A model generated the notes under the pieces. That model made no database searches. It was not told where the DNA came from and saw only the letters and a program-made list of their open reading frames with translations. Shown piece by piece: positions 7,659 to 34,334 of a stretch of 35,559 nt of DNA. The stretch covers positions 1 through 35,559 of the IMG/VR virus record IMGVR_UViG_3300038673_000605. One strand, written 5' to 3'. The stretch's first letter is position 1. Each line of letters opens with the position of its first letter. Source of the stretch: a virus. Lineage: Duplodnaviria; Caudoviricetes. The position numbers were made by a program, and so were the translations under genes.

Positions 7659-8152
7659 TTTCCTAGTTCATTGGCTTTCCTTTGGACTTTGGGCTCGGCT
7701 TGTCTGGCTCCTTTCTGTAGTGAGTGAGTTCCCTGGGCAGGTCCAACACTCCGGGCGAAAATATCCTTCCCTTTAATACAGAAATGAAGAACTCCTCTCT
7801 GCTTTCCCTGTTTGGCTATGTATTTGCCTTGATGGGTCTGTCCTCGTCCCTTTGCGAAAACAGGGCCGCGGCCATCTTCAAAATATTTAAACCATGGGGC
7901 AATACCTTCATCAGCATAAACCTCACCACCCCGACTAGTGGCACGGTGCCTTATAGCCGACTTAGTGGTTCCACCCTTCCCATGACCACTACAATGCTGA
8001 CCACGAGGGATGAAAAGCTGAACATCACTCTGGATAATTTTCAGCATACTAGTAGTGTCTTTTAAGAAGCGTGGGGCTACTGCTGATGATTTTTTAAGCA
8101 ACCGTTCAGGGAATCCTCCATCACTAACTTTCGCATGGATCTCAAGAACCAT
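7640..8152 (-). CDS. Neck/tail-completion protein (HK97 gp10-like)
   Basis: Basic protein with GTTKSAI...APWFKYFEDGRGP...ARSV motifs; fits the gene order. Confidence 0.7.
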   Translation of the reverse strand: MVLEIHAKVSDGGFPERLLKKSSAVAPRFLKDTTSMLKIIQSDVQLFIPRGQHCSGHGKGGTTKSAIRHRATSRGGEVYADEGIAPWFKYFEDGRGPVFAKGRGQTHQGKYIAKQGKQRGVLHFCIKGKDIFARSVGPAQGTHSLQKGARQAEPKVQRKANELGKWMEKL

Positions 8153-8565
8153 CAGTACCTCCTTCTCCGATGGTGGGTTTTACTCCCATAAAACGGCCTG
8201 TTGATACTTGAATTGTTCCTCGAATACCTTCCAGCCGGTTTACTGTTCTTGTTTTCAGCCAGCCAACCGTCCAGTATCTTATAAGCTTTGTTTTCCCATG
8301 CCACGGCAGTGGGGCTTCTCTCATCACCCGTCATGGCCAGACCATCCACATACTCCGCAGCTGCCAGTAAAGTTGCAGCTTTCTTAATAGCATCAGGGAC
8401 TGGAGTGGGGACTGTGGAATCAATCAGTGTGGCATCCACCAGTTCATCACCAGTGGCCACAGCATCAGCCAGTATATCCGTGTCGATTGTGCCGATTGTT
8501 TCCAGTTTCAAGACTTTCCTGGTGACCTCAGTAGAATCCGCGTAAGTCAAAATAAAATCCTCCAA
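8152..8565 (-). CDS. Head-tail adaptor protein
   Basis: YADSTEV start and PTPVPDAIKKAATLLAA helix typical of gp6/gp36-like adaptors; probable TTG start about 8550 after GGAGG. Confidence 0.75.
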   Translation of the reverse strand: MEDFILTYADSTEVTRKVLKLETIGTIDTDILADAVATGDELVDATLIDSTVPTPVPDAIKKAATLLAAAEYVDGLAMTGDERSPTAVAWENKAYKILDGWLAENKNSKPAGRYSRNNSSINRPFYGSKTHHRRRRY

Positions 8566-12126: not shown

Positions 12127-13536
12127 TCATACTGGCACTAATTCAATATATTTGAAGACTCCCCAATCACTGTCCACAGTGCCCGTTTTAACCATTTTGA
12201 AGTTCATTCCACGAGGCAATAATACTTCAGCCTCTCCGGGGTTCAGTGTTTTAGACATGTCTAAAGCAGTGCTCCCCTTAGGCATGTTAATTTTAAGCAC
12301 CGTGTCTGTGTCTGTAAATGTAGATAGGTCAAATGTTTCTTTAGAAGTGCTCATATATCCTTTATCAGAATAGGAACCATTCTTAACAAAGGTTAATTTC
12401 TGATCACCAGTTCCGCGCCATAGAACTGTATCTTTAGTAAGCTGTTTTTTTGCTATAACCCCATCCAATACTTTAACACTCTCTTTTATTTTAGGGATCA
12501 TCTCTTTAGGTGTGAATAATAGATTTTCGCTCACTTTCCCAGTTCGGAGATATTTGTTAATAATTTCATATGTCCCCTTGTTTCCATCTTCAGTATATAA
12601 TTGGAGCGTTTTTTTCTCTTTCTCGGTTAATGACTGGTTTTTGGTCTTTGATGATGAGGGCGTGGTTTCTTCAACTTGTTGAATAATTTTGGCCTGTTCC
12701 TTACCAGTCGCATTAGGACCGGTTCCATCCTTAGGAAGTTTATAACCCTGCTTCTCTAAAAGGGCCTTTTCCAGTTTATTCCGCTTTTTAATCTTCTTAG
12801 CATAATCCTCAGCATCCTTCTTACTATCAAAGTAAACCGGAACACAAGCACACCATGGATGAATCGGAGGGATATACTTAGTTTCGTCAATATCAAAAAT
12901 CCGGCCACTGAAAAGTTGAATACACCTTTTACAAGCCGCGGCACGGTAATCCACTATGAAATATTTAGCACCCTCAGCTTTAGCCTGGGACCAACTAGCC
13001 GTATTACTTCCACGCATGGTTTCGGTGGTGGCAATCTTCCGGGCCCGGTCCTGGCTGATGCCAATCTTATCACTCATCTCCTTAACAATCTCAGTGGGGA
13101 ATTTCTTCTGAGCATAACCATCGGCCAGGATTTTCCCCAGATCCTTTTTAAGGTCCGTGTCCATCTTGGTGACTAACTGCATCACACTGTCAACCATGGT
13201 GATTTGGACTATACTGGAAGATGCAGATGGGGCCACGTTGCCCGTGTTAAGGCCTATCTGGAATGCATCGGCGAGGTTCTGTTTAAAAGTAGTTATGTCT
13301 TCGGTGTTGGCATCGGTGATTACAAAGCCACGGTTCACCATGGCCCTTAAAACCTGTTCTAATTGGTTTGGGTCTTTGAATGTTTTAACAGCCTGTTCGA
13401 GTTCTGCTTGGCCTAATTTCAAGACTTTCTGTAATAATTGTTGGTTGTCTGCGATTTTGTTATACAAGCCGTCGGGGAGTGATTTGGGTTTGGCCACCTC
13501 GTCCCAGGCCGCAGCCTGCAAAGTCATCGGTGCCAT
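12127..13536 (-). CDS. MuF (SPP1 gp7-like) minor head protein fused to a C-terminal ADP-ribosyltransferase domain
   Basis: MuF motifs RARKIATTE, CKRC, PPIHPWCAC. ART motifs YT..Y..INKYLR, LWRG, YMSTS, EAEVLLPRG (R-S-E class). Confidence 0.9.
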   Translation of the reverse strand: MAPMTLQAAAWDEVAKPKSLPDGLYNKIADNQQLLQKVLKLGQAELEQAVKTFKDPNQLEQVLRAMVNRGFVITDANTEDITTFKQNLADAFQIGLNTGNVAPSASSSIVQITMVDSVMQLVTKMDTDLKKDLGKILADGYAQKKFPTEIVKEMSDKIGISQDRARKIATTETMRGSNTASWSQAKAEGAKYFIVDYRAAACKRCIQLFSGRIFDIDETKYIPPIHPWCACVPVYFDSKKDAEDYAKKIKKRNKLEKALLEKQGYKLPKDGTGPNATGKEQAKIIQQVEETTPSSSKTKNQSLTEKEKKTLQLYTEDGNKGTYEIINKYLRTGKVSENLLFTPKEMIPKIKESVKVLDGVIAKKQLTKDTVLWRGTGDQKLTFVKNGSYSDKGYMSTSKETFDLSTFTDTDTVLKINMPKGSTALDMSKTLNPGEAEVLLPRGMNFKMVKTGTVDSDWGVFKYIELVPV

Positions 13537-20158: not shown

Positions 20159-20273
20159 AACTGTACGGAAATTCCGAACAGTTCAACCAGTCACAACCTG
20201 TGACAATTTGTCACGTTTTCAACTTGTGCAAAATTTGCACGAGTTCTAACTACTATAATTTGTAGTATGTTCT
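20159..20273. repeat. Array of five sequence-diverse palindromes with 26-bp periodicity
   Basis: Dyad centres at 20171, 20197, 20207, 20233 and 20259; 3-nt centres AAT/ACC/ATT/AAT/ATT; units mostly begin AAC and end GTT(C). Confidence 0.85.
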
Positions 20274-22412: not shown

Positions 22413-23084
22413 TTAAATTAGTACAGCAGGATCAATCCTTCCTAATGTACTACTATTCTTAAGAACTCTTTGCACCACATCTGTACCGTTAAGATTGAAA
22501 TTGTTTATATCATCACTGATTATGGATTCTTCATTTCCATTTTCATCAGTTGATATTTTGAAGTGTCCCCTATCAAGAACATCTAATATTTCTCCCTCGA
22601 TTTGTTGTTCACAAACTGAATCAATTTCACAGTTTAATAAATCCATTAATGCTTCTTTTAAATCCACAGTGTTATATATGTCCGAATCGTGTCCAGTTAA
22701 CCATAGAATCCAGTTTCCATTTTCACAGCTAACATCATATTCAACATCTAACGCATCTAATGCGGCACAAACTACTGGTGCATCGCCTGCAACTCCCCAA
22801 TTAACATAAAATCCGTTCCCATCCCATTCGATTTCTCCGAACTCATTTATGTTTTTGTCTTCTTCTTTTGCAAGAGTTAATAAGTGTTGTTTGAGTTCTG
22901 TTTGGGTTTTAAAGTATCCAATAAAATCTATGTTTTCATTGTTGATTTCAGTCATTGTTTCAATTAGTTGTTTTGTGACTTCTGTTTCTTCGTAGCCTTG
23001 TAATTTTTCATAACTCCAATCGAGGACGTAAAATTTGTGTTCGCTTCGTTTTAGTTTCCAATTCACATATATTTTTTTGTTCAT
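22413..23084 (-). CDS. Acidic hypothetical protein
   Basis: 223-aa ORF with a GGTGA SD and its own upstream TATA box. Confidence 0.75.
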   Translation of the reverse strand: MNKKIYVNWKLKRSEHKFYVLDWSYEKLQGYEETEVTKQLIETMTEINNENIDFIGYFKTQTELKQHLLTLAKEEDKNINEFGEIEWDGNGFYVNWGVAGDAPVVCAALDALDVEYDVSCENGNWILWLTGHDSDIYNTVDLKEALMDLLNCEIDSVCEQQIEGEILDVLDRGHFKISTDENGNEESIISDDINNFNLNGTDVVQRVLKNSSTLGRIDPAVLI

Positions 23085-23145
23085 TTTTTCACCAACTTTT
23101 TTGAGAAGTAAATTCTGCTTCTACTAGTTAATAAGTTATTAATAG

Positions 23146-23154
23146 TATATAAAA
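23146..23154 (-). promoter_or_regulatory. TATA box for the 23084-21641 gene cluster
   Basis: TTTTATATA on the minus strand about 60 nt upstream of ATG 23084. Confidence 0.55.
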
Positions 23155-23169
23155 TTAACTATTCTGATC

Positions 23170-23281: not shown

Positions 23282-23899
23282 ATGCCTGGATTAAAAATAA
23301 GAGAAATAAAATTCACAAACAGTCAAAAATACGCTAAAGTAGATGCTGAAGACTATGATTGGTTAAATCAATGGGAATGGCAAAAATTCAGCAGACAGGA
23401 TGATCCTGATAATTATTATGCTGTAAGATGGGAAAATGGCAAAATGATATATATGCACCGCCAAATCCTCGGACTAAAAAAAGGAGAACGATCGCGACAC
23501 TTAAACGGTCGTGGATGGGATAACCGTCGCAGCAACCTTAAAAAATTAACACATGAAGGGGTTATCAAATCGGGGAATAGGTGGATTGCACGTATCAAAG
23601 TTGATTACAAATATATTCAACTTGGTATATTTAAAACAGAACCTCAAGCAACTAGGAAATATCAAGAAGCTAAACGAATTATTGATGATAAAAGAGTTGT
23701 TAATAAAATAGATAAAATACAAAGTATAATAATTCAAACTCGAAAAACAAGCAAATACAAAGGAGTAACTTGGAACAAAAGTAAAGGGAAATGGGCAGCT
23801 TATAGTTATATAAGAGTCCATCATGGATTGTTTGATTCGGAAGAAGAAGCCAATCAAGCTGTTGAGGACTATAGAGAATATAGGAAAAATATTAAATGA
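23282..23899 (+). CDS. HNH homing endonuclease with AP2 DNA-binding domains
   Basis: AKVDAEDYDWL, YMHRQILG, RHLNGRGWDNRRSNL, RWIARI..LG.F and TSKYKGVTWNK..KW motifs. Confidence 0.88.
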   Translation: MPGLKIREIKFTNSQKYAKVDAEDYDWLNQWEWQKFSRQDDPDNYYAVRWENGKMIYMHRQILGLKKGERSRHLNGRGWDNRRSNLKKLTHEGVIKSGNRWIARIKVDYKYIQLGIFKTEPQATRKYQEAKRIIDDKRVVNKIDKIQSIIIQTRKTSKYKGVTWNKSKGKWAAYSYIRVHHGLFDSEEEANQAVEDYREYRKNIK

Positions 23900-24374: not shown

Positions 24375-25088
24375 CTAAGCCATATCTACCATGCCAAAGC
24401 CCATGCTTGTCTTCTCACCAAGGCCCACCTGCCATGCGAATTCTAATAATTTCTCTGGTCCTGTTAATTCAAACTTCATCTGATTAGATCTGTGATAAAT
24501 CTCAATATTATCCTTTTTTATTATAATCCGCTTCTGTTTAACAGTACCTTTTAAGGGTTTGAAATCTAAATATAAATGGTCATGGTTCTTATAATAACTC
24601 CAATACTTTTTAAACAAGTTTTCGTTCAACCTCTCTTTAAATTCTGGCTCTCCGGGGCCCAAATCCCATGTTTTTCCGTCTCGTTCCGTTCGTAGATAAA
24701 TTGGGCTTAACGTTTTAAACTTCATATTCTCAGTGAATTTGGGTGTTTTCATGATTTCTGCTTTTTCCACTTCCGCCTGGACTCCCTGGAAGTCTATTTT
24801 AGGGTTACTGAAAAGACCATACCAGAGGTTTTTAATAAACTCCTCATTCACACTGGAAACTTGGACTTGGAACTTGCCATCCTTGGTAACTAATCCATCT
24901 GGTTGGATCTTTAACTGTGGGATCTGGACCTGGCTGAATGTGAAATATTTAAACCCTCTTGAGTCGTGCAATTCGGTTGCAAAATGAGTGTCTTCAAGTG
25001 CATTGTAAATAACAGTTGCTATTGTATAATTATTGTTATAAGGTAGTTTGAATCCTGGAATCGTTTTGAATGTTATTTTTAATCTCAT
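24375..25088 (-). CDS. cas6: CRISPR-associated endoribonuclease Cas6
   Basis: MRLKITF start, LHD..GFKYFTFS, FKTLSPI and the C-terminal G-loop GLGEKTSMGFG. Confidence 0.95.
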   Translation of the reverse strand: MRLKITFKTIPGFKLPYNNNYTIATVIYNALEDTHFATELHDSRGFKYFTFSQVQIPQLKIQPDGLVTKDGKFQVQVSSVNEEFIKNLWYGLFSNPKIDFQGVQAEVEKAEIMKTPKFTENMKFKTLSPIYLRTERDGKTWDLGPGEPEFKERLNENLFKKYWSYYKNHDHLYLDFKPLKGTVKQKRIIIKKDNIEIYHRSNQMKFELTGPEKLLEFAWQVGLGEKTSMGFGMVDMA

Positions 25089-25855
25089 CTATTCCAATCC
25101 TCCGGACGTTCGTTTCTTAACTCTGGAAACATGACTCCATCAAGATAATAACTCCCACCTTTATCCAGGGCAAATTTTGAGAATAGCATAGACCAACGGA
25201 CTTTATCGTATCCTTGTAATGGGCCGTATTTGTCATATAAGGAGAAATAAGGGAGGTTGTTGGTGACTATGTATGCCCATATGTCTCTCCACGTCCACCA
25301 TTTAAGTGGAAATGATACGAACCTTTGGCCTTCTTTTTGAATTAGTTGATTAGAGACTCTTTCTCTCCTTGTGATACTTTCTTCAGCCCTGATTCCCAAT
25401 ATTTCTATGTTGATGTTTCTTTCTTTCATTATTTTGAATAAATTGCCAAAGAATCTTTTGCTTGATGGGTCCCTCTGGCCACGTACAAATAACTTATTAG
25501 GATCAACTCCTAATTCTAAGGCTATTTTGGTAAGTTCCTTGGTGACTTCTTTGGGTTGTTTTATTTGTTTAGAGTCGTAGTCATAACCTGCGCTGAAGTG
25601 ATATACTGGGATGTTCGGCTCTATTATTAGGGCCATGTGGAGGAGGACTAAGCTGTCTTTTCCTCCACTGTAAAGGACTATACATTTGTGGTTGTGGATG
25701 AGGTCTGTTAACATTTGTTTGGATTGATTAACCTTTCTTTTATATTCTTTCTGCTTGGCCCACATCCCAAACATTGCCCTGGTTTTTCGTGGCATGTTTT
25801 GAGAATGGCATTTACCGTGTGATTTCATGTAACACAATCCCTGTAACCACGTCAT
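25085..25855 (-). CDS. cysH: CysH-like (PAPS reductase family) protein of the type IV-B locus
   Basis: YSGGKDS PP-loop, GIRAEESITR and PLKWWTWRDIWAYI..NNLPY..LYD; probable start about 25795 (MPRKT). Confidence 0.9.
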   Translation of the reverse strand: MTWLQGLCYMKSHGKCHSQNMPRKTRAMFGMWAKQKEYKRKVNQSKQMLTDLIHNHKCIVLYSGGKDSLVLLHMALIIEPNIPVYHFSAGYDYDSKQIKQPKEVTKELTKIALELGVDPNKLFVRGQRDPSSKRFFGNLFKIMKERNINIEILGIRAEESITRRERVSNQLIQKEGQRFVSFPLKWWTWRDIWAYIVTNNLPYFSLYDKYGPLQGYDKVRWSMLFSKFALDKGGSYYLDGVMFPELRNERPEDWNR

Positions 25856-26276
25856 TAATAAAAGGTAGTCTATTAGTTGTTTCTATTTTGAATCTGGGTA
25901 ATCCTTTGTAGGGGGCTTTTCTAACTGGTAAGTGTTCGTTTTCTCCTCCAAAATGGACAATTATGTCTGGTGGGCTTTTTTGCCATATTAATGATTGGAT
26001 GTGATTTTGGATTTTTTGGATTGGTTCTTTTCCATTGACTTCCATAATTATGTGTTCTTTTTCTTCGTTGGCTTTCCAAAAAACATCTTCTGTACTATAT
26101 CTTTTAATTTCGTGGGCGTTCTTTGCAGAATGAAGATGTTTATCTCTGAGTTGACAATTAGAGTCTATCAAATGTATAGTTGTGGGGCCAATCATGGTGA
26201 ATATTGTCCTATAACATCTCGTAAGGTTACCATCACTATTCATTTTATGATATGCTAATTCAATATCACTCTTCAT
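25812..26276 (-). CDS. Unknown protein embedded in the type IV operon
   Basis: ATG 26276 overlaps the csf3 stop (ATGA); no family recognised. Confidence 0.65.
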   Translation of the reverse strand: MKSDIELAYHKMNSDGNLTRCYRTIFTMIGPTTIHLIDSNCQLRDKHLHSAKNAHEIKRYSTEDVFWKANEEKEHIIMEVNGKEPIQKIQNHIQSLIWQKSPPDIIVHFGGENEHLPVRKAPYKGLPRFKIETTNRLPFINDVVTGIVLHEITR

Positions 26277-27001
26277 ACTCCCACCGTTATCTGGCTCTGT
26301 GGTACCAGGCACATCTTAACATTCCGTTTATCCCAATAAGGTGGCTTATATGATGCGTTCATAAATTGACTACCTTCGATTAATGGGAATGTTCTGGCCA
26401 TCTCCTGGGGAATTGGTCTCATGATATTTCCATCTTTGAAGAAACTATAATCTGTTTCTGTTTCTTCGATTTTGAAATCCAATATTTTCCCTCCACCTAT
26501 AGCTCCTTTTTTCCCTAAGCTGGTGAGGTGAGGGAGTATTTTTTCCAGGTCTTTTGGATCTGCGCAGGTGTAAAATGTAATGGTGTGTGGTGTGATGAAT
26601 GGTAGGTTGATCATAAAGTCCTTGAAATAGCCCCTATCAGTGTGTACTCGGCCTTGTCTTTGCCGTGGTTTTAATTTATCCACATTTTTATCCTGAAATC
26701 GTTTATAAATCGTAGATTGATATAATGGAGCCTGGTCAAATATGCTAACAGATGCGTGGTAAACATCTCCAGTTTTTTTGATTGGTATTTGCAGATCTTC
26801 AACTGGGACAATCTGGTCAGAGGGGAGGATATAGAAAAGTTCACCTAGGGCATCCCGCATACAAAGATACTGTACCAGTGAGTCGAAGTATAACCATGGG
26901 TGGGCCAAAAAAACCGGTGGTCGTACTTTGAAAGATATTTGGAGAGGACTGTAATCCTCTCCGCACTGGTATTCATTTATCTTTTGTTTGATTACTTCCA
27001 T
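26273..27001 (-). CDS. csf3: Type IV Cas5-family subunit Csf3
   Basis: PLQISF..PV....LYFDSL, YHASV, GYFK, ITFY, SLGKKGAIGGG, RPIP and YKPPYW motifs. Confidence 0.88.
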   Translation of the reverse strand: MEVIKQKINEYQCGEDYSPLQISFKVRPPVFLAHPWLYFDSLVQYLCMRDALGELFYILPSDQIVPVEDLQIPIKKTGDVYHASVSIFDQAPLYQSTIYKRFQDKNVDKLKPRQRQGRVHTDRGYFKDFMINLPFITPHTITFYTCADPKDLEKILPHLTSLGKKGAIGGGKILDFKIEETETDYSFFKDGNIMRPIPQEMARTFPLIEGSQFMNASYKPPYWDKRNVKMCLVPQSQITVGV

Positions 27002-27840
27002 TTTTTCACCATCTCATCCAGTTGCTGGATTATGGCTTCCTTGTTTTCTGTGATGTAATCTAAGTATGGTTTTTCATCCTCTGAGTTGTAGGGGTAGTTT
27101 AATCTTACTTTTCCATAGCCACTGCCACTTTTACCTCCTATGTATGGCCTTTCTTTCCAGAGGTTTAACATCCTTATGAGACAAGCTTTTTCATGAGGTT
27201 GTGGGTCTTCCAAGCTGATTTCGTGGGTGAATCGTGTTCCTGTGATGAGGGTTTGGAACTCGTATTTCATCTGCGTGGCGGCTTCTCCTTCTTCTCTGTC
27301 TTCTTTAAGGCTATCTAGACGTGTTCCAAAATCTTTACTCCGCAGACCATAGGCGCTGAAGTTAGGTTCTCCCTGTTCATCAAATGGGAGATAGTGGGCT
27401 GTTTCTTTGCAGACTATATCTGCCATCCCTACTTTGAGTTTGCCTTGTATCATCTGATTTCCTAATGCGGAACCTAAAAGACTGATTGGTGGGATGTGTT
27501 TCCTGATAGCATCCTTCATTTTAAGATTAATTGCACCTTTATCTTTCGCATCAACAGCCTCTAACATACCTCCATCGAAGAGGAAATGATATACTTTTTT
27601 AGAGTCTAATTGGTAATCCAGCAGGTCAAGGAAGTCCTGCATGATCAATGATCTCAAGTTTCCTCTGATGCTGTTCCCGTGAATAGTTGGGATAAGATCT
27701 ATTTCCTCTTCTCCTGTTTCTGCATTCTTAACCACGGTTGGTAAGACTAGGATTGGTTTAATGGTTCCATGGCTTTCTGACCCTCCATGATGTATTGGGC
27801 TTAACGCTTCAATGTTTCCTTTTATTACTTCTGTTTCCAT
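26992..27840 (-). CDS. csf2: Type IV Cas7-family backbone Csf2
   Basis: ALSPIHHG, IPTIHGNSIRGNLR, LFDGG, PPISLLG, GKLKVG, QM.YE.QTL..G and IGGKSGSGYG motifs. Confidence 0.92.
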   Translation of the reverse strand: METEVIKGNIEALSPIHHGGSESHGTIKPILVLPTVVKNAETGEEEIDLIPTIHGNSIRGNLRSLIMQDFLDLLDYQLDSKKVYHFLFDGGMLEAVDAKDKGAINLKMKDAIRKHIPPISLLGSALGNQMIQGKLKVGMADIVCKETAHYLPFDEQGEPNFSAYGLRSKDFGTRLDSLKEDREEGEAATQMKYEFQTLITGTRFTHEISLEDPQPHEKACLIRMLNLWKERPYIGGKSGSGYGKVRLNYPYNSEDEKPYLDYITENKEAIIQQLDEMVKKWK

Positions 27841-27841
27841 A

Positions 27842-28237
27842 TTAATTACCTCCTAATGTTGCCTGGCCCTGTTCTGCTAATTTGCGTTCTTCTTTCATTT
27901 TATCAACTTGCTCTAAGGCCATCATCACAATATAATTAGTCTCCTTCCTTAACACGTTCAAAACATAAGGTCTGTTCTCTTCTAAAAATTCTATTATCTC
28001 GGTGTTAATGTTCACCATGGGGACTTCAACATTCTTTTCAAGTGCTTCTGTGAATTGTTTGACATTCACAGCTCCTGATGCTTCCCTCACTCGTTCTATA
28101 AAGAATGTGTGGGCGCTTTTAACCCCTATTTTTCTCCATGGTATTCTTATGTAAATTTTAGCCAAAAGATAGGCTAATTTGCTTTCAGTTTCTAATTCTA
28201 ATTTCTTTTTTTCTTCCATCCAATCACCTTTATTCAT
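27842..28237 (-). CDS. cas11: Type IV small subunit Cas11 (Csf4)
   Basis: Small all-helical protein between csf1 and csf2, the canonical IV-B position. Confidence 0.7.
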   Translation of the reverse strand: MNKGDWMEEKKKLELETESKLAYLLAKIYIRIPWRKIGVKSAHTFFIERVREASGAVNVKQFTEALEKNVEVPMVNINTEIIEFLEENRPYVLNVLRKETNYIVMMALEQVDKMKEERKLAEQGQATLGGN

Positions 28238-28895
28238 TTAAATAGACACATAACCTCCAGATGGGACTGTGTGCATATTTTTTAATCTTCTTTGCTGTAT
28301 TACGTGGATTATCCAACTTCCTATAATGGTGCATTGACAATTCTCCGGTTTCCAATTCTGCTTTTGGTATTTTAAGCTCTCTTAATTCTTCAATTGTTTT
28401 GAATAATTCTTGTATCGCCTCCACTTCAACAAAATAAGTGTCATAATCAACACAACAACAGATTAACCCTTTATTGTCAGGGTTGACTTTGTTTAACATC
28501 TTTATCCAGCCCACTTTCTGCCAAGTGTTAGTCAGGTAAAGAATGAATGGTTCGTCTGGTAAATTAAGAATAATATCTTTAGCTTCTTGTTTTTTGAATT
28601 TTTTAAACTCATCATTAGTTATTATCCACATTGACCTGCGTAATTCATTAGATCGGGATATTAATGGTTTGCAGAATTCACATACCACGTCTCCCTGGCT
28701 GACCTCTGGTCCGGCTGTGAAGTTTCCTCCAAACTTTTTTTTATAACCATAGTTCGTTTCCTGACCACATAGGCAGCAGGTTCCTTTTTTATCCCCTAAA
28801 AATTGGTTTGTAATGGTTTTAACATTCCATTGGTTTAATATTTCTGGTTGTGTGTTCTGTTCTTGAACTGTACGGCTTAATGTCTCCATATTCAC
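28230..28895 (-). CDS. csf1: Type IV large subunit Csf1 (Cas8-like)
   Basis: CCLCG...NFT......VCEFC zinc site and LP.EPF......QK..W motif. Confidence 0.85.
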   Translation of the reverse strand: MNMETLSRTVQEQNTQPEILNQWNVKTITNQFLGDKKGTCCLCGQETNYGYKKKFGGNFTAGPEVSQGDVVCEFCKPLISRSNELRRSMWIITNDEFKKFKKQEAKDIILNLPDEPFILYLTNTWQKVGWIKMLNKVNPDNKGLICCCVDYDTYFVEVEAIQELFKTIEELRELKIPKAELETGELSMHHYRKLDNPRNTAKKIKKYAHSPIWRLCVYLNE

Positions 28896-30171: not shown

Positions 30172-30735
30172 TTAACCCTCCATCATTTGTTCCATTTTCT
30201 GGTATCTTTCCTTCATCTGCATTGCATCATGGAGACTGTTATGCACCTGGCCCTTTTTTCCTTGAGTTTCCTGTAAAATCTCCAAGGGAACACCTAAGAT
30301 TTTGTCCAAGGAGCATAGACTTTGATTGTAATAATACTTGTCATCCTCCTTGACTCCTTCCAGTCCTCCGAGGAGGTCGGCTAGTAAAACCCAGTCAAAG
30401 GCCAAACAGTCATTCCAGAACTCGTATTCCTCGAACTGTTTTAACCATTCTTTCAGATACGTTTTTATCCGTTCTTTACCGTCTTTGATTTCAATATTGC
30501 CTATGAAGTCCTGATTATTCCAAACATCCGTATCGTTGAATTTTAGTTTCTTGAGGACATTTTTCCGGATCCACTTAGTAACCTGGCTTTTATCGTAATC
30601 ATTAAACTCCGCATAGAATGTCAGGCCATGCTCTGAAACCATTCCTATACTAATAATGGTGGTGTTTGGGTGGAGGCCGGTCATTTCAGTGTCGAAAAAT
30701 ATTTTAGTTGCCATATATTCACGTCCATTATTCAT
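30172..30735 (-). CDS. DEDDh 3'-5' exonuclease (Rv2179c-like)
   Basis: IFFDTEMTGL, ISIGMV, FYAE, AFDW and HNSLHDA motifs. Confidence 0.88.
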   Translation of the reverse strand: MNNGREYMATKIFFDTEMTGLHPNTTIISIGMVSEHGLTFYAEFNDYDKSQVTKWIRKNVLKKLKFNDTDVWNNQDFIGNIEIKDGKERIKTYLKEWLKQFEEYEFWNDCLAFDWVLLADLLGGLEGVKEDDKYYYNQSLCSLDKILGVPLEILQETQGKKGQVHNSLHDAMQMKERYQKMEQMMEG

Positions 30736-31606: not shown

Positions 31607-31825
31607 TTATTCAACCACCACCCATGATTCACCGTTCCATTGCATGTTTAACATTTTCAAACCTCTGACAAGTGCATCACAGGCTTTTTGAGCTAATTCT
31701 AAAAGATACTCCCATAACTCTTTAAAAAAATCCACCAACTCTTTATATTCAGCCTGTTCTAATGGTAATCCTCTATAAGTTCCAAAGTTTACAAGTTCAT
31801 AAGTTATCAGTGCGAGTTTATTCAT
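31607..31825 (-). CDS. Hypothetical protein
   Basis: Overlaps the upstream stop; operon packing. Confidence 0.55.
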   Translation of the reverse strand: MNKLALITYELVNFGTYRGLPLEQAEYKELVDFFKELWEYLLELAQKACDALVRGLKMLNMQWNGESWVVVE

Positions 31826-32510
31826 TTAAACAACCCCATTGTTTCCTTTTTGCACTTCTTAATTCGTTCCACCATCTATGCTCTAAACTAAATACAGTTT
31901 CTCCTTGGCGGAAATCGTTAGGACTTTCCCACTGCATCTCTCTCATTTTCTGCCACAGTTCAGGGTAATATTTAAACAAAATCCGCAATTCATTTAATTT
32001 TTGTAATGGACAACACCAACAATTATAACGGCTTCTCTGTTTGTAAACCCCCCCAAAATCAAACCCTTCAGCATAACAGAGTTCTAAAGCCTTTTTTTCA
32101 GTGTAACTATAATCAATCAAGGGGTACCTAATAATACCTTTTTTATACCTTTTGTTGTTGGTCCTATGAAGTTCATCAGCCGCCATTCCAACATACTGAG
32201 TTAACCCATTCTTGTACTTACCTAAATATTTGTTAATATTATCTCTTTTAAGCCCCGTACACCACCTAACAAGTGGAGATGCAAATCCCCATTTTTTAAA
32301 TCCTTCTTGTATCTTTTTAGAAATGTCTATGTGTGTTATGGACATTCCTACATATTTCTCCACTTTTTCAAGATGTTCATCAACCCCTGGCCACATCCAG
32401 GATCCAACATCAGCATACACGATTTCATCTAGTTCCAGTTGGTTTTGTTTGATGAGAATTAACATTGCTGTGCTGTCCTTCCCACCTGAGTAAAGAGCTA
32501 TATTTTTCAT
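31818..32510 (-). CDS. Second PAPS reductase/CysH-family protein with a Cys cluster
   Basis: YSGGKDSTAM, RWCTGLK, YVGMAADE..R, YPL and NCWCCP motifs. Confidence 0.88.
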   Translation of the reverse strand: MKNIALYSGGKDSTAMLILIKQNQLELDEIVYADVGSWMWPGVDEHLEKVEKYVGMSITHIDISKKIQEGFKKWGFASPLVRWCTGLKRDNINKYLGKYKNGLTQYVGMAADELHRTNNKRYKKGIIRYPLIDYSYTEKKALELCYAEGFDFGGVYKQRSRYNCWCCPLQKLNELRILFKYYPELWQKMREMQWESPNDFRQGETVFSLEHRWWNELRSAKRKQWGCLNE

Positions 32511-33370: not shown

Positions 33371-33597
33371 CCTATCCTCCCTAAAGGAATTGGCCCTTTT
33401 TCCTTTGCTTTCTCTTCAAATAAATTAAAAAAAGTTCTAAACGCACTGCAATGTTTACAAGGTTCATAAATGCCTTCGTCTAAAACATCCTCTTCGTATT
33501 CAAAATATTTCCTGTTTTCCTGTTTTATTCTCCTGATATATGGGCACCAGAAAACATGATATGTCCCGTTTTTTATGTTAGCAACAAACCTAATCAT
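33367..33597 (-). CDS. Ada-type metal-binding domain protein
   Basis: FVAN....YH..WC....I..EN..YF......GIYEPCKHC pattern. Confidence 0.75.
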   Translation of the reverse strand: MIRFVANIKNGTYHVFWCPYIRRIKQENRKYFEYEEDVLDEGIYEPCKHCSAFRTFFNLFEEKAKEKGPIPLGRIG

Positions 33598-34334
33598 CCG
33601 AACAATCCCTCCAGCGTTGTCTGCTTATCCTCCTCTGTTATCTCCACCGTTGGAGTGGCCACCTCAGCCTGTTCCAAGAGCATCCGTGACTTATTATATT
33701 CTTCCTCGGACAGACTCCTAATATGGGGATAGCCAACAGTGTTAAGGGCTTCATTAACTTTCCAAGCACCATAAAAATCCAATAATAAAGAATTATGCCA
33801 AATAACCTCACCAACCACCCCATGAACTAAAAAGTTAACTGTGGCCATGAGACAGCAGGTATGATCCACATCCTCTGCAACCATGTAACTTCCTGGCCTT
33901 TCAACATGTGCAGCTAGAAGACACCTGCCACTGCCAGCTGATGGGTCACTCATCTTAAGCGGACCGTCCTTCTGAACATTGCCTATATTTATCTTGGCCA
34001 TTGCAGTGCAGATTTCATGTGGTGTGAAAAACTGTCCTGCCTTCTCACGCTGATAAGGAGTGCTGATGCAGGATTCATAATAAGTTCCTGGGAAATCAAA
34101 CCATTCTACGCTTTTTAATTTTTGGTTCATGGTGAGGATGAATTCCTGGTACATTTCGTATAGGATCCTGATTTCATTCTTGGTGTAATTCTTATCCCAG
34201 GTCATGGACTGGTCTGTGAGGTGGCCCATGATAATGTATTCCAGCCAGTCGTCAAAGACTCTGGCCAGGTCGTGTTTATTGGTTAGTTGGCCTATTAGTT
34301 CATGGAACTTTTTAAAGCCTGGTGGGATGTCTAT
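33594..34334 (-). CDS. N6-adenine DNA methylase-family protein (short form); probable ATA start
   Basis: GQFFTP and SAM-binding DPSAGSG. The frame extends 35 codons upstream of ATG 34229 (FKKFHELIGQL..HDLARVFDDWL) to ATA 34334 after GGAGG. No NPPY/F catalytic motif is visible. Confidence 0.8.
   Translation of the reverse strand: MDIPPGFKKFHELIGQLTNKHDLARVFDDWLEYIIMGHLTDQSMTWDKNYTKNEIRILYEMYQEFILTMNQKLKSVEWFDFPGTYYESCISTPYQREKAGQFFTPHEICTAMAKINIGNVQKDGPLKMSDPSAGSGRCLLAAHVERPGSYMVAEDVDHTCCLMATVNFLVHGVVGEVIWHNSLLLDFYGAWKVNEALNTVGYPHIRSLSEEEYNKSRMLLEQAEVATPTVEITEEDKQTTLEGLFG

Follow-up and report, generated by a model that had tools for sequence, protein, structure and literature searches.

A virus-encoded type IV-B CRISPR-Cas operon with a host-family Cas6 and a predicted SPOUT-fold methyltransferase

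What RNA do subtype IV-B CRISPR-Cas complexes carry, and what do they do with it? Both questions are as old as the subtype itself. The one solved complex belongs to a system lacking a maturation enzyme and bound random RNA, and the 2025 classification, in its available portion, still gives IV-B without a demonstrated function (PMC12669027). Here, we analyze a virus-encoded operon that bears on this question. The operon, csf1-cas11-csf2-csf3-X-cysH-cas6, lies in a 35,559-nucleotide (nt) stretch of viral DNA (positions 1 to 35,559 of IMG/VR record IMGVR_UViG_3300038673_000605; hereafter, the window), in which its seven genes occupy 4.5 kb of the minus strand (24375-28895). Its last gene encodes a Cas6 of a host type I-B family, and gene X is predicted to encode an RNA methyltransferase. 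We suggest, tentatively, a role in counter-defense. The genes, and one stretch within csf2 that is discussed below, are as follows.

24375..25088, minus strand: Cas6, host type I-B family, with triad Y28/H41/K47 and Gly-rich loop (TIGR01877, 165 bits against a cut-off of 59; PADLOC E 5e-66)
25085..25855, minus strand: CysH-like PP-loop enzyme (SGGKDS), without the C-terminal catalytic Cys (Pfam PAPS_reduct E 1e-18; alignment)
25812..26276, minus strand: gene X, a minimal SPOUT (TrmL/CspR-like) methyltransferase-fold protein of 154 residues (profile, model and structure matches)
26273..27001, minus strand: csf3 (Cas5; PADLOC Csf3_0_IV E 4e-53)
26992..27840, minus strand: csf2 (Cas7 backbone; PADLOC Csf2_0_IV E 4e-68; 85-89% identical to three Methanobacteriaceae loci)
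27842..28237, minus strand: cas11 small subunit (PADLOC Cas11_0_IV E 1e-24)
28230..28895, minus strand: csf1 (Cas8-like large subunit, CxxC...CxxC; PADLOC Csf1_0_IV E 3e-36)
27431..27466, minus strand: stretch of csf2 matched at 31 of 36 positions by a spacer of a host I-B-like array, all differences synonymous

A Type IV-B Core on a Tailed Virus

The gene junctions overlap or abut. Specifically, csf3/X and cysH/cas6 each share a 4-nt ATGA, and cas11 and csf2 are spaced by 1 nt. The likely start of csf1 is the ATG at 28889, which follows a ribosome-binding site (RBS), and that of cysH is 25825 or 25795. An earlier note, made from the sequence alone, had described this seven-gene minus-strand arrangement, and the open reading frame (ORF) positions and profile matches bear it out. 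The same note reported neither cas1, cas2 or dinG nor a repeat-spacer array in the window. ORF scans and the repeat searches described below agree: Pfam and PHROGs scans of the window’s 42 ORFs found no cas1, cas2, dinG, recD or cas10.

The subtype IV-B assignment proposed in the earlier note stands. The window’s Csf2 is 85% identical to, and in the same Csf2 clade (support 98) as, that of Methanobacterium sp. PtaU1.Bin097 (locus L013, MVQY01000060), which Pinilla-Redondo et al. 2020 label as IV-B (PMC7038947, supplement); the tree took in no reference IV-A, IV-C or IV-D Csf2. The CysH-like protein fits the description of CasCysH, with a PP motif and the catalytic Cys missing (PMC8175902). Because Csf2 groups with a IV-B-labeled locus, CysH fits CasCysH, and DinG, RecD, Cas10, Cas1 and Cas2 were not found, we assign the operon to IV-B by sequence. 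It has csf1, csf2, csf3 and cas11, and no helicase, nuclease, adaptation gene or array was found at the locus in the 35.6-kb window; it departs from the typical, non-defining IV-B state in possessing Cas6. Other subtypes fit less well. IV-A and IV-E have DinG and an array and lack cas11, whereas here cas11 is present and DinG and an array were not found. The RecD helicase and array of IV-D were not found at the locus, and in place of the Cas10-like HD subunit of IV-C there is a Csf1 of 221 residues, whose four Cys are invariant in 26 of 26 aligned sequences. All guide-binding subunits are intact, and they are under purifying selection in relatives.

The window is a single contig of a tailed virus with terminase, portal, capsid, tail tube and PCNA genes (Pfam, PHROGs). 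The earlier note had placed the operon in the viral early region; the structural genes and PCNA confirm the viral setting, and “early” is a reading of gene content. Because an identical Cas6 is recorded on a 49,961-nt contig, the virus record is partial, with at least 14 kb beyond the window. In assembly pieces of the probable source run, depth over the operon equals that of the flanks (9.4-10.3), which is not independent evidence. In genome collections, the three closest Csf2 proteins (85-89% identity) lie in Methanobacterium or Methanobacteriaceae assemblies, from which we infer a Methanobacterium-like host.

Cas6 Belongs to a Host Type I-B Family and Follows the Csf Core

Cas6 cuts CRISPR repeats. 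The window’s protein combines the family score, the Gly-rich loop and the Tyr/His/Lys triad of a Cas6 endoribonuclease. Y28, H41 and K47 are invariant in 16 of 16 aligned sequences and match by alignment the triad of the Pyrococcus protein (chain 3pkm, which we take to be the P. furiosus Cas6 enzyme). The nearest cellular relatives are 41-45% identical, and their family heads type I-B operons in hosts. Two annotated host operons, one for each of two host Cas6 families, are both type I-B. The earlier note had asked whether this Cas6 is closest to host I-B or III enzymes; it is of the host I-B family, and in quick trees it falls outside the sampled host clades rather than nested among them.

Cas6 is under purifying selection in relatives: ratios of nonsynonymous to synonymous substitution (dN/dS) for IV-B-linked cas6 are 0.12, 0.08 and 0.18 in three pairs, like those of the core genes. 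For comparisons against the window itself, dS is saturated. A single clade of the 12 IV-B-linked Cas6 proteins is rejected (approximately unbiased test, p 7e-5). Four of them belong to the second host I-B family (43-46% identical to those of L111 and L112); for the remaining eight, of the window’s family, a single origin is not rejected (p 0.14). By these trees, methanogen viruses took Cas6 into their IV-B operons on at least two occasions, drawing on two host I-B Cas6 families. Within IV-B operons, cas6 occupies four different positions.

How widespread is the arrangement? Our Csf2 survey comprised 64 distinct loci (86 matches before identical sequences were removed; two partial loci were left out), all fetched through the window’s Csf2 and related to one another, so that presence counts are not independent. 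Cas6 occurs in 10 of the 22 loci of the Methanobacteriales-type Csf2 clade, in both members of a distant pair (L093 and L095), and in none of the 40 others; among full-flank loci only, it occurs in 7 of 14 from that clade and 0 of 20 others. A separate scan of viral contigs for Cas6 gave no match. With the triad preserved and cas6 accompanying the operon in these relatives, the earlier note’s view of an intact-looking, linked Cas6 holds. Its remark that IV-B typically lacks Cas6 is right for the typical locus and overstated otherwise, as rare IV-B loci with Cas6 have been catalogued (10.1101/780106). L011, L020 and L021 group with the window in a Csf2 clade (support 95) in which every locus has Cas6, and the CysH proteins of these four do not form one clade (p 1e-8). 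Thus, Cas6 follows the ribonucleoprotein core and not CysH.

Host Repeats Are the Candidate Substrate Class

The earlier note reasoned that an intact Cas6 implies a defined RNA substrate, either host precursor CRISPR RNA (pre-crRNA) or a noncanonical viral RNA. As to viral arrays, repeat search, an exact-repeat finder, Rfam at E<=1, and two-copy and periodic scans revealed no array or mini-array in the window, for which the note had also reported no repeat-spacer array. Two-copy and periodic scans likewise found none in the CheckV-complete Cas6-bearing genomes G204 and G205 or in the 79%-complete G005. Because the periodic scan missed one of two TIGR-array controls, a looser scan was added; it scored the controls at 7-12, the window at 5, the null at 4-6 and relatives at 6 or less, a thin margin for weak arrays. 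No solitary host-like repeat was found in the window either: some five distinct host repeats matched it at 21/30 at best, against a null maximum of 23, and a sixth reached 20/30. Rfam returned nothing relevant in the window (one snoRNA match, outside the locus, reached 30 bits against a cut-off of 70), and no tRNA was found there. A noncoding stretch at 23075-23157, 81% identical to L011, was considered as cargo and rejected, given its TATA-like box, its RBS and folding z values of -0.8 and -1.6. With no array found in the window, G204 or G205, the host’s repeats are the one known kind of substrate within reach. Host pre-crRNA is thus the better supported half of the note’s proposal, given that the searches recovered no viral array and that the Cas6 is of the host I-B family; for the viral half, no candidate RNA emerged.

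Host repeats and Cas6 are available in the lineage. Cas6 matches were present in 83 of the 201 Methanobacteriaceae genomes searched, and 8 of 20 regions around Cas6 matches yielded arrays. In G155, one of 19 genomes of the genus that were searched, an array of 134 repeats lies next to an I-B-like operon; the Cas6 of that operon is 43% identical to the window’s. Of the array’s 132 spacers, a single one is that matching csf2 at 27431..27466. Read in frame, this spacer gives a conserved Csf2 motif; it agrees with L011, L013 and L002 at 32/36, and shuffled spacers differ at 10 or more positions. The spacer probably derives from an unsampled relative. None of 186 spacers from other host arrays gave a near-full match to the window. 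A host-array spacer of L110 matches the csf3/cysH junction of the Cas6-bearing locus L037 (L037:7817-7849) at 30/33.

Two further repeat-like elements came to light. Noncoding positions 20194-20240 of the window contain two adjacent similar palindromes, the first of which matches three host genomes at 27/28, apparently within a gene and not in an array or tRNA. In L008 and L009, a 36-nt array near the IV-B operon was rejected as a IV-B array and assigned to a separate TIGR-Tas system. That system (TIGR_Tas_endo E 7e-51, with a 36-nt-period array; L008:2034-3480, L009 about 7900-8300) lies ~0.7 kb upstream of the IV-B operon in a hot-spring phage group.

Gene X and the Exchangeable Slot Beside cysH

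The earlier note placed gene X correctly in the operon, left it as unknown and so missed a predicted RNA-methyltransferase fold; its start is corrected to 26276. Homologs comprise seven close sequences and four more distant ones of similar length. A 14-sequence profile matches TrmL (7e3t) at E 3e-6. The predicted model (pLDDT, the predicted local distance difference test, 86), which supersedes a low-confidence fold from seven sequences, matches CspR in Foldseek (E 7e-8, template-modeling score about 0.7), and VIA-align against TrmL/CspR gives Z 16.5 with a root-mean-square deviation of 2.4 Å over 143 residues. R23 is invariant in 14 of 14 aligned sequences, N17 and G110 are nearly so, and all align with TrmL motifs that presumably serve catalysis and S-adenosylmethionine binding; the last, C-terminal knot motif has diverged. 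By model, gene X thus encodes a SPOUT (TrmL-like) fold, and RNA 2'-O-methyltransferase activity is predicted.

In all four loci with DNA context (the window, L020, L021 and L148), the SPOUT gene lies between csf3 and cysH; the L148 Csf2 is only 39% identical to the window’s. A single clade of these four loci is rejected for Csf2 (p 1e-75); for CysH it is not (p 0.39), in keeping with joint movement of the SPOUT gene and cysH. The SPOUT dN/dS is 0.34 in the one usable pair, above that of the core genes. Equal lengths of the longest contig (41,935; 16,541; 5,219) connect Cas6 and SPOUT homologs, P0002/P0121 with P0128/P0129 and P0005 with P0133, hinting at further operons with both genes.

CysH itself, whose closest solved relative is CysD (1zun, E 3e-14), is exchanged on near-identical cores: the window’s CysH is 69% identical to that of L020 and 38% to that of L011, whereas both Csf2 proteins are 89% identical. 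The gene beside it varies as well. L011 and L012 have N6/N4-methylase-like genes in this slot; L002, L003 and L016 have PAPS-reductase/DUF3440, GNAT and ParB_N genes; and L140 has glycosyltransferase- and methylase-like genes. In L093 and L095, cysH is missing and DUF6610-cas6-QueF-methylase follows csf3. Judged by gene content, what lies next to cysH is an exchangeable cassette of predicted nucleic-acid-modifying enzymes, a feature that the earlier note, which saw CysH as a possible nucleotide-modifying effector, missed. There is precedent in an N6-methylase and an ADP-ribosyltransferase-family gene beside IV-B (Shmakov et al., 10.1101/270033).

L093:248-5399 and L095:1128-6287, from one Methanobacterium genome, are proviral IV-B-like operons with the order csf1-cas11-csf2-csf3-DUF6610-cas6-QueF-Trm1-like methylase. 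Their gene content suggests 7-deazaguanine chemistry in place of CysH. The DUF6610 product is possibly DpdA/TGT-like, which we offer only as a lead. Small ORFs also occur directly 3' of cysH. One type, of 36-43 residues (L005:12356, L036:3624, L033:11102, L037:8588) and not present in the window, has an M-G-S-(G/S)-G-G start, an Asp nine residues past the Met in all four cases and a basic tail; the PP-loop enzyme may use its product as a peptide substrate. A second is a conserved 7-codon ORF, MD[SA]KGK[DN], at L007:13061, L025:4165, L028:3110 and L031:8452, with a strong RBS in L031.

What Might the Operon Do?

We propose, while giving it slightly less than an even chance, that the operon acts on host guides. 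Cas6 would cleave host type I-B CRISPR repeats in pre-crRNA and hand the resulting crRNA over to the Csf filament. CysH and the SPOUT methylase would then chemically modify the crRNA held there, both reactions being putative, and the outcome would be anti-CRISPR counter-defense against host immunity. IV-B Csf2 and Cas11 are described as forming a filament on RNA of 55-60 nt (PMC7937560).

Several observations weigh against this proposal. The host already has a Cas6, so a crRNA sponge is not obviously in need of its own, and the viral Cas6, standing apart from the sampled host enzymes, may have drifted in its specificity. Of the 22 same-clade loci, 12 lack Cas6, as do all 40 more distant ones, and the SPOUT gene is not present in 60 of the 64 Csf2 loci. 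Neither is needed for IV-B function; with Cas6 absent from about half of close relatives, it does not define IV-B cargo in general. In L036 (about 3800) and L037 (about 4545), cas6 has no standard start codon after a clear RBS, reflecting a non-standard start, damage or sequencing error. Weak or unusual arrays in the scanned DNA could be missed, and at least 14 kb of virus lies outside the window. The host spacer against csf2 shows exposure of the operon to immunity, not counter-defense. The incomplete genome that contains L011 yielded neither another Cas6 nor anything matching the main host repeat. Finally, the Mycobacterium IV-B complex is reported not to enrich a co-expressed type I-E crRNA (PMC7937560), and IV-B correlates negatively with other CRISPR systems (10.1101/780106).

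Some of these same facts suit other explanations. The Csf filament could scaffold a non-CRISPR RNA, viral or host (e.g., tRNA), that CysH and its exchangeable partners modify, with Cas6 as an optional helper for trimming or capping, one that now cleaves some other hairpin. The variety of the slot beside cysH, the replacement of cysH by QueF and DUF6610 in two loci, the swapping of CysH on near-identical cores, the optional nature of Cas6 and the non-CRISPR RNA bound by the solved IV-B complex are all as this explanation would have them. We nonetheless consider it rather doubtful: Rfam and tRNA searches of the window produced no candidate viral RNA, the shared noncoding stretch looks like a promoter with an RBS, and the repeated gain of a CRISPR-specific Cas6 is left unexplained. 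Alternatively, Cas6 could act on its own, as a competitor of host Cas6 or a mis-processing anti-CRISPR that merely shares the operon promoter. Viral homologs of Cas5, Cas8b and Cas3 can be stand-alone anti-CRISPRs according to the literature, and the variable position and patchy presence of cas6 would suit such a role. We judge it improbable, given that Cas6 is co-inherited with Csf2 and that viral Cas6 lies inside or directly beside a IV-B operon in 12 of 12 cases seen in context, a count biased by fetching loci through Csf2. Near 33 related terminase genes, likewise without a IV-B gene in reach, no Cas6 was found in limited flanks of up to 10 kb.

The guides might instead be put to use. In this case, Cas6 would load host crRNAs, and the complex would find complementary nucleic acid of competing viruses or plasmids and modify or silence it, thereby protecting the lysogen. 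The intact guide-binding subunits and their purifying selection agree with such a role, as does the location of several relatives in assembled host genomes. SPOUT enzymes of the TrmL type are not known to carry a separate RNA-binding domain, which would leave room for a guide complex to confer specificity. Host arrays, however, also include spacers directed at the IV-B genes themselves, and borrowed guides could thus be turned against the virus; helicase and nuclease were not found at the locus; and target binding is not reported for any IV-B complex in the portions of the literature examined. We regard this use of guides as unlikely. A bolder generalization, which we rate as a long shot, would make IV-B a machine for the RNA-guided modification of RNA, the viral equivalent of the small nucleolar ribonucleoprotein. 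Host CRISPR guides, cut by the virus’s own Cas6 and loaded on the Csf filament, would direct two enzymes, a 2'-O-methyltransferase and a PP-loop adenylating one, to the guide itself or to the target paired with it, and relatives would swap other modifying enzymes onto the same core.

Our preferred reading, the capture and modification of host crRNA, is open to experiment. In 4.5 kb, the operon brings together a putative maturation enzyme, its candidate substrate (repeats of host I-B systems, recovered from related genomes) and a fold of known chemistry. With all three in one operon, an in vitro decision is possible between a sponge, a guided modifier and CRISPR-independent roles. If true, the proposal would bear on how methanogen viruses deal with host CRISPR immunity.

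Neighboring Genes

Upstream of the operon on the same strand lie genes for a DEDDh 3'-5' exoribonuclease-like protein (30172-30735, minus strand), a second PAPS-reductase-like protein (31818-32510, minus strand) and an N6-methylase (33594-34229, minus strand); in relatives, none of the three showed consistent linkage to the operon. An HNH/AP2 homing-endonuclease-like gene (23282-23899, plus strand), opposite to its neighbors, lies 0.5 kb from cas6. At 12127-13536 (minus strand), a MuF minor head protein is fused to an ADP-ribosyltransferase domain.

Relation to Known Systems

Cas6-bearing IV-B operons and IV-B operons of archaeal viruses have both been published; the presence of both Cas6 and SPOUT in one operon sets this locus apart. 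Among the openly accessible papers listed in our literature search, none joins SPOUT with type IV or treats repeated Cas6 gain or Cas6-bearing IV-B in methanogen viruses.

Close comparisons can be made with Methanobacterium sp. PtaU1.Bin097. Its L013 operon shares 85% Csf2 identity and the IV-B label, and has neither Cas6 nor SPOUT in the available DNA. The same genome’s L093 and L095 (contigs C5 and C20) do have Cas6, together with a distant Csf2 and DUF6610-cas6-QueF-methylase instead of cysH. The supplement of PMC7038947 lists PtaU1.Bin097 IV-B loci on MVQY01000060, ...005 and ...020; with C5 and C20 equated with the latter two by contig number, L093 and L095 appear to be in the IV-B catalogue already. 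The L093 Cas6 scores 380 bits on profile Cas6_7_IV, so the Methanobacterium cases are probably in that data set.

Type I-B Cas6 enzymes of Methanobacteriaceae are of the same family as the window’s Cas6, with 41-45% identity and the triad kept; the window’s enzyme represents a separate viral lineage for which no cognate array was found. The TrmL/CspR tRNA (C/U34) 2'-O-methyltransferases (7E3T, 9J5P) share with gene X the minimal SPOUT fold and the N-x5-R motif, whereas gene X is 16-19% identical to them, has a diverged C-terminal knot motif and resides inside IV-B operons.

The IV-B system of Mycobacterium sp. JS623 (PDB 7JHY; PMC7937560) shares the csf1-cas11-csf2-csf3 core, the CysH-like partner typical of the subtype and the lack of an array and adaptation genes. 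The window’s operon differs in residing on an archaeal virus and in including a SPOUT-fold gene as well as a Cas6. Virus-encoded IV-B with cysH is also known from Fuxivirus (PMC10848311) and from a Methanoperedens virus (10.1101/2023.08.02.551345), and counter-defense has been proposed for them; their main texts contain no occurrence of Cas6. The Fuxivirus cas7 is matched by a host spacer, as is the window’s csf2, and Fuxivirus has a mini-array, whereas none was found in the window. Thus, the operon described here joins a known IV-B core and a known viral setting to a host-family Cas6 and a predicted RNA methyltransferase.

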